This document shows, piece after piece, positions 52,439 through 53,218 of a DNA stretch of 64,000 nt; position 1 is the stretch's first letter, and each line of letters begins with the position of its first letter. Where the stretch lies: sequence record KT184315.1. One strand, written 5' to 3'. Source of the stretch: Enterobacteria phage KhF3. A program made the position numbers and the translations under genes. A model generated the notes under the pieces. The model was given only the letters and a program-made list of their open reading frames with translations, searched no databases and had not been told where the DNA came from.

Positions 52439-52711
52439 TTACTTCCTCGTTTTGAGAACTGCTAAGATTTCTTTAGAGTCTGGTAAGAACCATGTGTAGT
52501 GATTCTCTTTGATTTCTGGATGAGTGTCAACCTTTATTTTGCACTCTTTACCAACATGCTTAAGCTGTGCTGTGATACCTTGCATAAAGATGTGACACAT
52601 TACATTATCCATAATCGTAGGTAAGAAATCAATCCTCATGTAAGTATCTTTCGGTCTCGGTAGAAGTAAGTAACCTTCTGTGTAGAAAGTTTCATCATTA
52701 CTTTGTGTCAT
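52439..52711 (-). CDS. Hypothetical protein
   Basis: 90 aa. Confidence 0.4.
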   Translation of the reverse strand: MTQSNDETFYTEGYLLLPRPKDTYMRIDFLPTIMDNVMCHIFMQGITAQLKHVGKECKIKVDTHPEIKENHYTWFLPDSKEILAVLKTRK

Positions 52712-52977
52712 TACTGCTTATTCCCTAATAAAATCATATCAATAAGGTTATTAGCTTTGATTGTGCACTGGTAAAATCCATCACGATAGAACTCAAGGGC
52801 TGCTGCCACATCACTACCAGTATTACCTTTGATAGTAAATCTTGAATCTTCTTGAGTGTACTTATCACCCTCACTTACTTGGGAGTTTTTGAATGTACTG
52901 TTCACTTTGTTCGTTGAACACCCTGACATAATTATCAGTAACACAAACATTATAAAACTCTGGCTTAGTTTTTTCAT
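52711..52977 (-). CDS. Lipoprotein, candidate outer-membrane spanin
   Basis: Signal peptide plus lipobox IIMSGC; start lies inside the 3' end of the TM/periplasmic gene in another frame. Confidence 0.45.
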   Translation of the reverse strand: MKKLSQSFIMFVLLIIMSGCSTNKVNSTFKNSQVSEGDKYTQEDSRFTIKGNTGSDVAAALEFYRDGFYQCTIKANNLIDMILLGNKQ

Positions 52978-53218
52978 ACGTTAGTACCTCTTTTGTGTGC
53001 TTATTCTTAGCAAGCACATCTTTCAAATCATTTTTGTAATTGGTGCTGAGTGTGGCTAAACCTTCCTGATAAGCATCTTTGGCAACACTTATTAGTTTCT
53101 CATTATTTAGCTCAGTTTCAGCAACTTGGTAGTCTCTGTAAGAGTATCCTCCCCAGACACCTGTCCCAACTAAGAAAACAATTATGAAAGTAGCTTGACA
53201 GAACTCTTTAAATGTCAT
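52871..53218 (-). CDS. N-terminal TM, periplasmic-domain protein, candidate inner-membrane spanin
   Basis: TM FIIVFLVGTGVWGGY then charged helical domain; 107-nt overlap with lipoprotein gene. Confidence 0.45.
   Translation of the reverse strand: MTFKEFCQATFIIVFLVGTGVWGGYSYRDYQVAETELNNEKLISVAKDAYQEGLATLSTNYKNDLKDVLAKNKHTKEVLTYEKTKPEFYNVCVTDNYVRVFNEQSEQYIQKLPSK

Follow-up and report, generated by a model that had tools for sequence, protein, structure and literature searches.

The overlapped gene pair

The window analysed here, a 64-kb stretch of phage DNA, comes from a Felixounavirus that is 99.4% identical to XTG1 (~99% to XTG1/KhF1). On its minus strand, the segment 52711-53218 holds two genes that we assign to the inner-membrane and outer-membrane subunits (i-spanin and o-spanin) of a two-component spanin (Table 1). 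A sequence-only reading had described overlapping genes for a transmembrane (TM) protein and a lipoprotein at 52871-53218 and 52711-52977, and every element of this arrangement is present, namely the two open reading frames (ORFs), their Shine-Dalgarno (SD) sequences, the transmembrane domain (TMD), the lipobox and a 107-nt overlap. The o-spanin start is found this distance ahead of the i-spanin stop codon, in the +1 frame relative to i-spanin, and with two adjacent genes in this register the pair falls into the overlapped class of two-component spanins, the other two architectures under the criteria of Summer 2007 and Kongari 2018 being embedded and separated. The i-spanin ATG has an in-frame TAA upstream. 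In the o-spanin, the internal Met10 and Met17 are not preceded by an SD sequence, and we consider Met1 (52977) a better start than the shortened one of several GenBank records, which corresponds to Met17.

Table 1. Positions of the spanin genes, their sequence elements, the endolysin and the holin candidate
Feature	Position	Strand	Details
i-spanin gene	52871..53218	-	115-aa ORF; predicted type II inner-membrane protein; Felix O1 p014 / ORF 6 homologue
i-spanin N-terminal transmembrane segment	53138..53197	-	residues ~8-27, QATFIIVFLVGTGVWGGYSY; Kyte-Doolittle maximum at residues 7-21
Invariant periplasmic Cys92, i-spanin	52943..52945	-	motif N-x-C-x-[TS]-[DE]-x-Y-x-x-x-F-N-[EQ]; 8-homologue alignment
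Shine-Dalgarno AGGAG, i-spanin	53227..53231	-	8-nt spacer to ATG; same SD in the Felix01 record
o-spanin gene	52711..52977	-	precursor of 88 aa, predicted outer-membrane lipoprotein of 69 aa once mature; homologue of Felix O1 p015 / ORF 7
Lipoprotein signal peptide and lipobox I-M-S-G/C20	52918..52977	-	PS51257-type match; +2 Ser, +3 Thr
Invariant periplasmic Cys71, o-spanin	52765..52767	-	C-terminal stretch around E[FW]Y…C…N-x-L; 8-homologue alignment
Shine-Dalgarno AAGAGGT, o-spanin	52986..52992	-	8-nt spacer to ATG; within i-spanin gene
Dual-coding overlap, 107 nt	52871..52977	-	i-spanin residues 81-115 / o-spanin residues 1-35, +1 frame
Intrinsic terminator hairpin	53232..53259	-	AGGCTCC-TTCG-GGAGCCT and T-run; ends at i-spanin SD
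Endolysin (soluble lysozyme, 154 aa)	37978..38442	+	PF00959, E 1e-40; PHROG 7 endolysin, E 8e-58
Holin candidate, 123 aa	3946..4317	-	N-terminal TM, then a helical tail; resembles Felix O1 gp79; annotated 'holin' in heid and others

The terminator hairpin upstream of the pair is identical to terminator t5 of Felix O1, and a terminator is annotated at the equivalent place in Mijalis and in Kuravirus Paul. Its placement immediately ahead of the i-spanin SD is conserved between Ounavirinae and Kuravirus and may represent a deliberate throttle on spanin dosage. A sigma-70 promoter scan of 52300-55200 gave 9 candidates, compared with 7.8 expected from shuffled sequences, and singled out no promoter for the pair, and an Rfam scan of 50000-56000 returned zero RNA families.

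The i-spanin is composed of a single hydrophobic segment (~8-27) followed by an 88-aa hydrophilic C-terminal part, the layout of a small type II protein in its predicted orientation. The SpaninDataBase entry for the Felix01 i-spanin is divided in the same way, into 27 N-terminal residues (cytoplasmic stub and TMD) and 88 periplasmic residues. The AlphaFold2 single-sequence models of the two spanin proteins are of low confidence (pLDDT 52.6 and 54.5), and the one for i-spanin places helices at residues 27-72 and 103-111. For the Felix01 i-spanin, 66% helix is predicted (Kongari suppl. file 3; PMC6139136), with no predicted coiled coil in Kongari's table (PMC6139136).

The N-terminus of the o-spanin, MKKLSQSFIMFVLLIIMSG/C-S-T, fits the PROSITE PS51257-type lipobox rule, with Cys20 as the predicted lipidation site and Ser at +2, and by this rule the protein has a signal peptidase II (SPII) signal peptide and a lipobox Cys, with no inner-membrane retention signal. 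Since there is no Asp at +2, sorting to the outer membrane is expected. The lipobox that had been proposed from the sequence was borne out, and eight diverged homologues all share its Cys and the 'CST' motif; for the homologue in Paul, SpII cleavage by LipoP has been reported. Throughout the 64-kb window, on both strands, two ORFs have an SPII-like N-terminus, against a mean of 0.67 in 30 shuffles, the second being a 45-aa ORF. The mature o-spanin contains zero prolines and is folded and partly helical by prediction (sequence; Kongari suppl. file 3). A unimolecular spanin of the T1 gp11 type was considered and rejected, as hydropathy past residue 20 remains <0.8, which leaves the lipoprotein with no TMD at its C-terminus, and the function is split over two genes.

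Family membership and conservation

The i-spanin matches PHROG 1152 'Rz-like spanin' with an E-value of 1.4e-41, its residues 1-115 aligning to profile positions 2-124 of 127, while the o-spanin matches PHROG 4180 (E 1e-49) and 2425, and more weakly PHROG 456 'Rz-like spanin' (E 5e-4). A Pfam search gave zero matches for either spanin protein, and a sequence search of the PDB only noise (E > 0.3). In the curated SpaninDataBase, Felix O1 p014/p015 are listed as an overlapped ('ovl') OIS/OOS pair of family JH2 with a 107-nt overlap (Kongari et al. 2018, suppl. file 5, PMC6139136), and both proteins described here reach the ≥40% identity over ≥40% length that defines this family. The i-spanin is 97.4% identical to the Felix01 i-spanin and the o-spanin 93.3% identical to the Felix01 o-spanin (94% to the JH2 o-spanin by tblastn), and the two loci also share both SD sequences, terminator t5 and a single periplasmic Cys in each subunit. 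The i-spanin has 115 aa in both phages, whereas the o-spanin has 88 aa here and 89 aa in Felix O1, one C-terminal Gln being missing. The remaining differences are a few substitutions, including a lipobox that reads IMSG/C here and TMSG/C there, and none of these differences is functional. The i-spanin annotation is carried by the homologues in heid, Mijalis and phiSUSP1, the o-spanin is annotated as such in many relatives, and i- or o-spanin annotations are found in heid, JK55, Mijalis, phiSUSP1, Paul and others.

The 107-nt overlap bears a clear dual-coding signature. Among five related genomes, the variability of third codon positions is 51% in the part that encodes only i-spanin and 69% in the part that encodes only o-spanin, but falls to 17-23% within the overlap, and relative to phage Mijalis the overlap has diverged by 9% and the flanks by 25-27%. 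Third-position variability and divergence are both suppressed in the overlap, therefore both frames are under selection. In the o-only part, variability is 15% at codon position 2 versus 69% at position 3.

We aligned eight diverged homologues from Ounavirinae genera, Kuravirus and Gorganvirus, a set that covers myo-, podo- and siphoviruses. All eight retain the TMD, the 'C-S-T' lipobox, one conserved Cys in each subunit and the overlap of the two genes in the +1 frame, and in seven other phages the genes are in the same +1 register with overlaps of 107-137 nt. The o-spanin signal peptide, lipobox and C-terminal motif are conserved down to ~25-30% identity, and in the stretch E[FW]Y…C…N-x-L only the Cys, Asn and Leu are strictly invariant. 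Cys92 of i-spanin and Cys71 of o-spanin are both invariant, and in 507/528 spanin systems the periplasmic part has one or more Cys close to the C-terminal interaction region (PMC6139136 section 12). The phiEco32-like podoviruses (Kuravirus; Paul gp036/gp035, KBNP1711, ECBP2) belong to the same JH2 i-spanin family, with 32-36% identity by tblastn, and share the overlapped +1 architecture (116 nt there), the terminator just upstream, the Cys motifs and the 'CST' lipobox. They differ from this phage in virion type and genome and in an o-spanin that has prolines and one extra Cys, and that Kongari's 40% rule puts in a separate family. In Proteus phage Isfahan, the homologous pair is terminal in one operon, after a holin (PHROG 198) and an endolysin-like gene, and its i-spanin homologue also matches PHROG 1152 (E 3e-18).

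Dispersed lysis genes and alternative readings

The spanin genes are found in the rIIA/rIIB-PNK region, beside neither endolysin nor holin. The gene at 37978-38442, already proposed as the endolysin, was identified as such by a PF00959 match (E 1e-40), and its distance to the spanin genes is 14.3 kb. The earlier suggestion that the lysis functions are dispersed is right, and this dispersal is a published trait of Felix O1-like phages (PMC3185647; PMC4319497). Four flanking ORFs, two on the endolysin side (36845-37978 and 38494-38892) and two on the spanin side (52439-52711 and 53271-53735), were scanned for hydropathy with a strict 19-residue window, and 0/4 reached the threshold; because the scan misses even the TMD of the i-spanin itself, it is too strict and we draw no conclusion on the holin from it. 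Felix O1 ORF 6, which by our own count is the i-spanin (gene 1 being rIIA and terminator t5 lying after ORF 5), has its maximal transcription at 25 min, in the same middle-phase class as the lysin ORF 35.

Based on the PHROG 1152 match, the curated Felix O1 pair, the annotations of relatives, the architecture kept in distant phages and the Isfahan lysis cassette, all of which support the spanin reading first made from the letters of the sequence, we conclude with a probability of about 90% that 52711-53218 encodes the two-component spanin of a Felix O1-like myophage (SpaninDataBase JH2, overlapped). Points that tell against this reading are the proline-free mature o-spanin, so unlike lambda Rz1, the Felix01 i-spanin without a predicted coiled coil, the negative Pfam and PDB searches, the low-confidence models, and the position of the genes away from endolysin and holin and immediately behind a terminator.

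The alternative that holds up best, which we nevertheless regard as improbable, is that the lipoprotein is another outer-membrane or periplasmic lipoprotein of phages, acting, for instance, in superinfection exclusion or receptor blocking (e.g. T5 Llp, Cor), with an unrelated TM protein and an overlap due to compact packing. That the genes remain linked, with an unchanged +1 overlap register, in phages of the myo-, podo- and siphovirus types argues against such a chance association, and the location in the rIIA/rIIB-PNK region, outside a lysis cassette, which would suit a non-spanin lipoprotein, is offset by the terminal position of the Isfahan pair in a holin-endolysin operon. A mature form that is proline-free, unlike Rz1, and best PHROG matches of 'unknown function' also point in this direction, but the TM partner is placed with confidence in a PHROG of Rz-like spanins, both subunits have the conserved C-terminal Cys motif expected of interacting spanins (PMC6139136 section 12), and spanin-subunit features are seen in no other ORF of the 64-kb window. 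Our literature searches, which found no functional data (that is, no complementation, localisation or deletion experiment for the JH2-type spanin family), agree with this alternative as well.

It is very improbable that the true spanin is instead the TM/coiled-coil pair at 3946-4511, with the 52711-53218 pair doing something else. The sequence-only reading had named 3946-4511 as a second spanin candidate, and its 123-aa member does combine a TMD at the N-terminus with a long helical segment behind it, and matches PHROG 739 Rz-like spanin marginally (E 0.009, with no stretch that is significant). This proposal failed, however, since neither protein has a lipobox and no candidate partner was found in any frame of 3300-5200 with strict and permissive rules, the one permissive match being antisense inside a tail-fibre gene. 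Furthermore, the 123-aa protein is annotated as a holin in relatives and corresponds, by our own reading of Whichard's gene numbering, to gp79, which is among the Felix O1 holin candidates (PMC3185647), whereas the curated database gives the Felix O1 spanin as p014/p015.

The probability that the 88-aa ORF is a fortuitous, unexpressed reading frame, out of frame within and beyond the 3' end of the gene for the TM protein, is practically negligible: gene callers often skip or shorten it (it is shortened in heid, TP1, SunLIRen and PMBT37, and XTG1 and others annotate hypothetical proteins only), but a strong SD precedes it at the proper spacing, its signal peptide, lipobox and C-terminal motif are conserved in remote homologues, codon variability is typical of a coding frame in its o-only part and is suppressed in the overlap, and only ~0.7 SPII-like ORFs per 64 kb are expected by chance.

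Relation to known spanins and proposed function

The overlapped prototype, phage P2 LysB/LysC, has the same organisation, in that the 3' end of the i-spanin gene contains the +1 start of the o-spanin gene, which continues past the end of the former (PMC6139136). However, our searches detected no sequence relationship to LysB/LysC, the P2 spanin is in a lysis cassette, and P2-type o-spanins have four periplasmic Cys (e.g. Fels-2, fiAA91-ss), unlike the pair described here. In lambda Rz/Rz1, the origin of the membrane-fusion model, a type II inner-membrane protein and an outer-membrane lipoprotein also share DNA and have periplasmic Cys residues near the C-terminal interaction region, but Rz1 is 'embedded' wholly in Rz, the genes are part of the S-R-Rz cassette, and there is no sequence similarity. 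The mature lambda Rz1 is short and proline-rich, with 10 Pro in 40 aa, and is unstructured, whereas the mature lipoprotein here has 69 aa and is proline-free. In T4, PseT.3/PseT.2 are likewise distant from the endolysin (e) and the holin (t) (PMC6139136 Fig. 8 legend). In both T4 and this phage the spanins are one gene from polynucleotide kinase, and the i-spanins are of similar size (117 aa in T4, 115 aa here). Because both phages place their spanins near polynucleotide kinase, homology to PseT.3/PseT.2 was tested, and was rejected at the sequence level (E 0.95 and 0.04, the latter over the signal peptide only). The T4 genes have the 'separated' architecture and are upstream of pseT rather than downstream, and the T4 i-spanin has no Cys and its o-spanin two, in contrast to one per subunit here.

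From the lambda Rz/Rz1 and T4 PseT.3/PseT.2 paradigms we infer localisation, complex formation, disulfides, membrane fusion and timing, and propose the following mechanism. The 115-aa i-spanin would insert in the inner membrane through its N-terminal TMD, in an N-in/C-out orientation, with its 88-aa, mostly helical domain reaching into the periplasm. The 88-aa o-spanin precursor would be exported, lipidated on Cys20 and cut by signal peptidase II, and, having Ser and not Asp at +2, should be delivered by the Lol system to the outer membrane, into its inner leaflet. Both subunits would then bind each other through their C-terminal parts, the resulting complex would reach across the periplasm by way of the murein meshwork, and the invariant C-terminal Cys, one per subunit, would probably form Dsb-dependent intermolecular disulfide bonds. 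Both Cys92 and Cys71 are within the most conserved C-terminal modules, which presumably interact, and it is conceivable, if rather unlikely, that they form a heterotypic i-o disulfide and so a covalent tether from inner to outer membrane, which would differ from the homotypic dimer disulfides of lambda Rz/Rz1 and T4 PseT.2. Once a holin has permeabilised the inner membrane and the lysozyme has degraded the murein, the spanin complexes would be free to move and collapse, fusing inner and outer membranes and thereby removing the final obstacle to the release of virions.

The pair, its overlapped architecture, the family including its link to the phiEco32-like podoviruses, and the scattered lysis genes are all published, and we claim no new biology. 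The annotation is settled, with 52871-53218 as the i-spanin and 52711-52977 as the o-spanin, starting at 52977. The family is widespread, with roughly 300 homologues in phages. Together with the lysozyme, the spanins cover two of the three lysis steps of this phage, the holin being a candidate only. The practical value of the finding is small, and consists in flagging recurrent errors in databases, where the o-spanin start codon is misplaced or the gene omitted, an omission shared by papers that report 'only one spanin'.

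Identity and family of the gene pair

The 2-kb stretch around the pair is 99.3-99.4% identical to Enterobacteria phages XTG1, KhF1 and KhF2 and Felixounavirus LF82P9, and over 90% identical to more than 200 Felix O1-like myophages of Escherichia, Salmonella, Shigella and Citrobacter hosts, which identifies the window as part of a Felixounavirus genome (Ounavirinae). The minus-strand gene order from rIIA to the macro-domain protein (see table) agrees with how heid and typing phage 1 are annotated.

Features of the spanin region, the other lysis-related loci and the misannotated o-spanin loci
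Feature	Coordinates	Strand	Remarks
rIIA	56257-58623	-
rIIB	55068-56177	-
Secreted 182-aa protein	54419-54967	-	Sec-type signal peptide MKKLILGLCLMFTAHLSYA, cleaved before V; PHROG 600 (unknown function)
Polynucleotide kinase	53746-54441	-	PHROG 3970
154-aa protein	53271-53735	-
Intrinsic terminator	53232-53259	-	between 154-aa and i-spanin genes
i-spanin gene	53218..52871	-	115 aa
o-spanin gene	52977..52711	-	88 aa
Several small genes	between o-spanin and macro-domain genes	-
Macro-domain (Appr-1-p processing) protein	50929-51714	-	PF01661, E 1e-7
Endolysin	37978-38442		PF00959, E 1e-40; PHROG 7
377-aa protein	36845-37978	+	three immunoglobulin-like domains (Ig_3, Ig_2, I-set)
123-aa protein	3946-4317	-	N-terminal TMD and long helical tail; PHROG 4038
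65-aa hydrophobic/amphipathic protein	4314-4511	-	upstream of 123-aa gene; PHROG 402
Misannotated o-spanin loci in stretches of other phages	L001 3712-3930; L002 3010-3228; L007 703-876; L010 748-876; L006 884-1084

Both ORFs of the sequence-only reading are present exactly as it described them. The ATG of the first is directly preceded by an in-frame TAA, with an AGGAG upstream at an 8-nt spacing, and its product has the claimed single N-terminal hydrophobic segment (residues ~8-27), followed by 88 hydrophilic residues. The second gene shares 107 nt with the first, in the +1 frame, bearing out the proposed overlap, and its ATG follows an AAGAGGT with an 8-nt spacer; no Shine-Dalgarno site like that of Met1 was found at the internal Met10 and Met17. 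Its product begins with MKKLSQSFIMFVLLIIMSG followed directly by C-S-T, in agreement with the PROSITE-type lipoprotein rule and hence with the lipobox claim (Cys20, Ser at +2), leaving a mature protein of 69 aa without any proline.

The TM protein is a full-length match to PHROG 1152 'Rz-like spanin' (E 1.4e-41). For the lipoprotein the hits are PHROG 4180 and 2425, both of unknown function, and a weak one to PHROG 456, again 'Rz-like spanin'; neither protein gave a match in Pfam or in a PDB sequence search. The comparison that settled the matter was against SpaninDataBase, the curated resource of Kongari et al. 2018 (PMC6139136), where Felix01 (NC_005282) has a two-component spanin of the 'ovl' (overlapped) class. 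Its i-spanin p014 (115 aa, 27 N-terminal plus 88 periplasmic residues) and o-spanin p015 (89 aa, 19-aa signal sequence, lipobox TMSG/C), each with one periplasmic Cys, both belong to family 'JH2' and lie at 5330-5678 and 5571-5841, overlapping by 107 nt; the window's proteins are 97.4% (i) and 93.3% (o) identical to them. JH2 i-spanins are also listed for wV8, Moogle, Mushroom, UAB_Phi87 and phiEco32-like podoviruses (PMC6139136), and numerous GenBank records carry i-spanin/o-spanin labels, including heid, JK55, skuden, Mijalis, phiSUSP1, Sf13, Sf14 and Paul. For Felix01, 20% helix and 16% strand are predicted in the o-spanin, and the i-spanin is predicted to be about 66% helical, with no entry in the coiled-coil table (PMC6139136); an AF2 model of the window's o-spanin is partly helical, at low confidence. 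The proline-free o-spanin, the lack of a listed coiled coil and the upstream terminator are traits of the known family and do not contradict the spanin assignment.

Conservation and dual coding

A tblastn search gave 312 phage records for the lipoprotein and 402 for the TM protein. We compared the pair across seven diverged phages: Mijalis (Mooglevirus), phiSUSP1 (Suspvirus), Hafnia phage SarahDanielle, Erwinia phage SunLIRen (Kolesnikvirus), Salmonella phage PMBT37, Escherichia podovirus Paul (Kuravirus) and Proteus siphovirus Isfahan (Gorganvirus). In all seven the two genes overlap by 107-137 nt, the lipoprotein gene starting in the +1 frame inside the TM-protein gene's 3' end. The TM protein always has its N-terminal TMD and, C-terminally, the motif N-x-C-x-[TS]-[DE]-x-Y-x-x-x-F-N-[EQ], whose Cys is invariant (Cys92 here). 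All seven lipoproteins likewise have a signal peptide, an invariant C-S-T after the lipobox and, in a conserved stretch towards the C-terminus, an invariant Cys (Cys71 here) with an Asn and a Leu after it that are also invariant. The Isfahan genes are arranged as holin (PHROG 198, E 7.5e-24), small ORF, endolysin-like protein (PHROG 9589, 21357, 1259), i-spanin homologue (PHROG 1152, E 3e-18) and an unannotated o-spanin homologue; the pair closes a canonical lysis operon, which links the family to lysis without recourse to transferred names and, with PHROG 1152, the Felix01 entries and the relatives' annotation, supports the spanin reading.

The 88-aa lipoprotein ORF is not a chance ORF. Third-position variability among five alignable relatives reaches 51% where only the i-spanin is encoded and 69% where only the o-spanin is, falling to 17-23% where it coincides with the other frame's first or second position, and divergence from Mijalis is 9% within the overlap versus 25-27% on both flanks, the signature expected of two overlapping frames both under purifying selection. 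Across both strands of the 64 kb only two ORFs have an SPII-like N-terminus, compared with an average of 0.67 in shuffled sequence. The second of them (48741-48878, plus strand, 45 aa, …LVLSVSSC…) is in line with the ~0.7 per window expected by chance.

T4 (region L013 2003-3782) has the order alc, pseT.3 (i-spanin), pseT.2 (o-spanin), pseT.1 and pseT, the polynucleotide kinase, whereas here it is kinase, one gene, i-spanin and o-spanin, so that the kinase is one gene away in both, on inverted sides. Since there is no significant similarity to the T4 spanins (i-spanins E 0.95; o-spanins E 0.04, signal peptide only), we treat this likeness as positional only. The macro-domain gene lies ~1 kb downstream of the pair, and in Paul (L008 1066-1506) directly after the o-spanin; this neighbourhood could be conserved across Ounavirinae and phiEco32-like phages.

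Other lysis genes and database annotation

The endolysin was confirmed, 14.3 kb from the spanin genes (15 kb in the sequence-only reading), as was the dispersal of lysis functions, a published trait of Felix O1-like phages: Whichard et al. 2010 (PMC3185647) described no holin-lysin cassettes and, as in T4, no holin adjoining lysin gp35, and the Moogle announcement describes lysis proteins scattered around the genome. A strict hydropathy scan left all four ORFs beside the endolysin and the pair below its threshold; it also missed the i-spanin's own TMD. The 377-aa gene stop and the endolysin start have base 37978 in common; its product matches PHROG 3995 'tail protein' and Hoc-like proteins.

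The second spanin candidate, at 3946-4511, does not qualify: both of its proteins lack a lipobox, and a scan of every frame of 3300-5200 found no lipobox ORF. Both genes come shortly after the tail-fibre gene. The 123-aa protein, labelled 'holin' in heid, momo, VSe11, BPS17W1 and others, corresponds by gene order to gp79, one of Whichard's Felix O1 holin candidates (PMC3185647), and is a putative holin. The 65-aa protein is annotated much shorter in heid (L003 1020-1133).

The 182-aa protein, whose gene sits between rIIB and the kinase, 1.2 kb upstream of the spanins, might be an additional murein hydrolase that is exported. It is called 'putative lysin' in heid, and its Pfam match to the SLT lytic-transglycosylase family stays below threshold (E 1.2e-3, 18.8 bits versus a cut-off of 21.3); a PDB sequence search gave no relative.

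Several GenBank records begin the o-spanin at an internal codon (affecting 52929-52977, minus strand, in window coordinates), so that the annotated protein loses its signal peptide. In heid_49 and typing-phage-1 gp087 it begins at Met17 ('MSGC…'), and SunLIRen gp13, PMBT37 and SarahDanielle_54 are likewise shortened; all of these sequences contain the complete ORF, MKK/MKR…lipobox and good Shine-Dalgarno site included. Such calls probably account for the reports of 'only the i-spanin' in vB_Si_DR094 (PMC8300805) and 'only the o-spanin' in SPJ41 (PMC9951933). Felix O1-type spanin gene copies (93-97% identity) also occur in GU169904.1 (125936-126199, 'Staphylococcus phage SA1') and MG065668.1 (41103-41447, 'Campylobacter phage A126'), which are probably mislabelled, chimeric or contaminated records.

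Expression and proposed mechanism

The terminator (AGGCTCC-TTCG-GGAGCCT, hairpin 53259-53242, plus a T-run) is strong, abuts the i-spanin Shine-Dalgarno site and is Felix O1 terminator t5; the same layout is annotated in Mijalis and Paul. No convincing promoter was found between t5 and this site, which suggests that spanin expression depends on t5 read-through or on an unrecognised phage promoter. By RT-PCR, Felix O1 ORF 6 belongs to the class peaking at 25 min, together with lysin ORF 35 (Table 3, PMC3185647), and ORF 6 is the i-spanin by count, because gene 1 is rIIA and t5 follows ORF 5.

Following the lambda Rz/Rz1 and T4 PseT.3/PseT.2 paradigms (PMC6139136), the 115-aa protein would be anchored N-in/C-out in the inner membrane, and the 88-aa precursor would be lipidated at Cys20, cleaved and, since +2 is Ser and not Asp, sorted by Lol to the outer membrane. 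The conserved C-terminal modules would bind each other in a periplasm-spanning complex threaded through the murein, which, after holin triggering and murein removal by the lysozyme, would oligomerise and fuse both membranes. The single conserved Cys of each subunit would probably form Dsb-dependent intermolecular disulfides, a periplasmic Cys near the C-terminal interaction region being present in 507 of the 528 catalogued spanins (PMC6139136); a heterotypic Cys92-Cys71 disulfide linking i-spanin to o-spanin is improbable. Our literature search for experimental validation of this spanin family found none.

The pair is already known: the curated spanin database lists it, many relatives have it annotated and genome papers discuss it; what is added here is the correct start of the o-spanin, together with quantitative evidence for dual coding and conservation.
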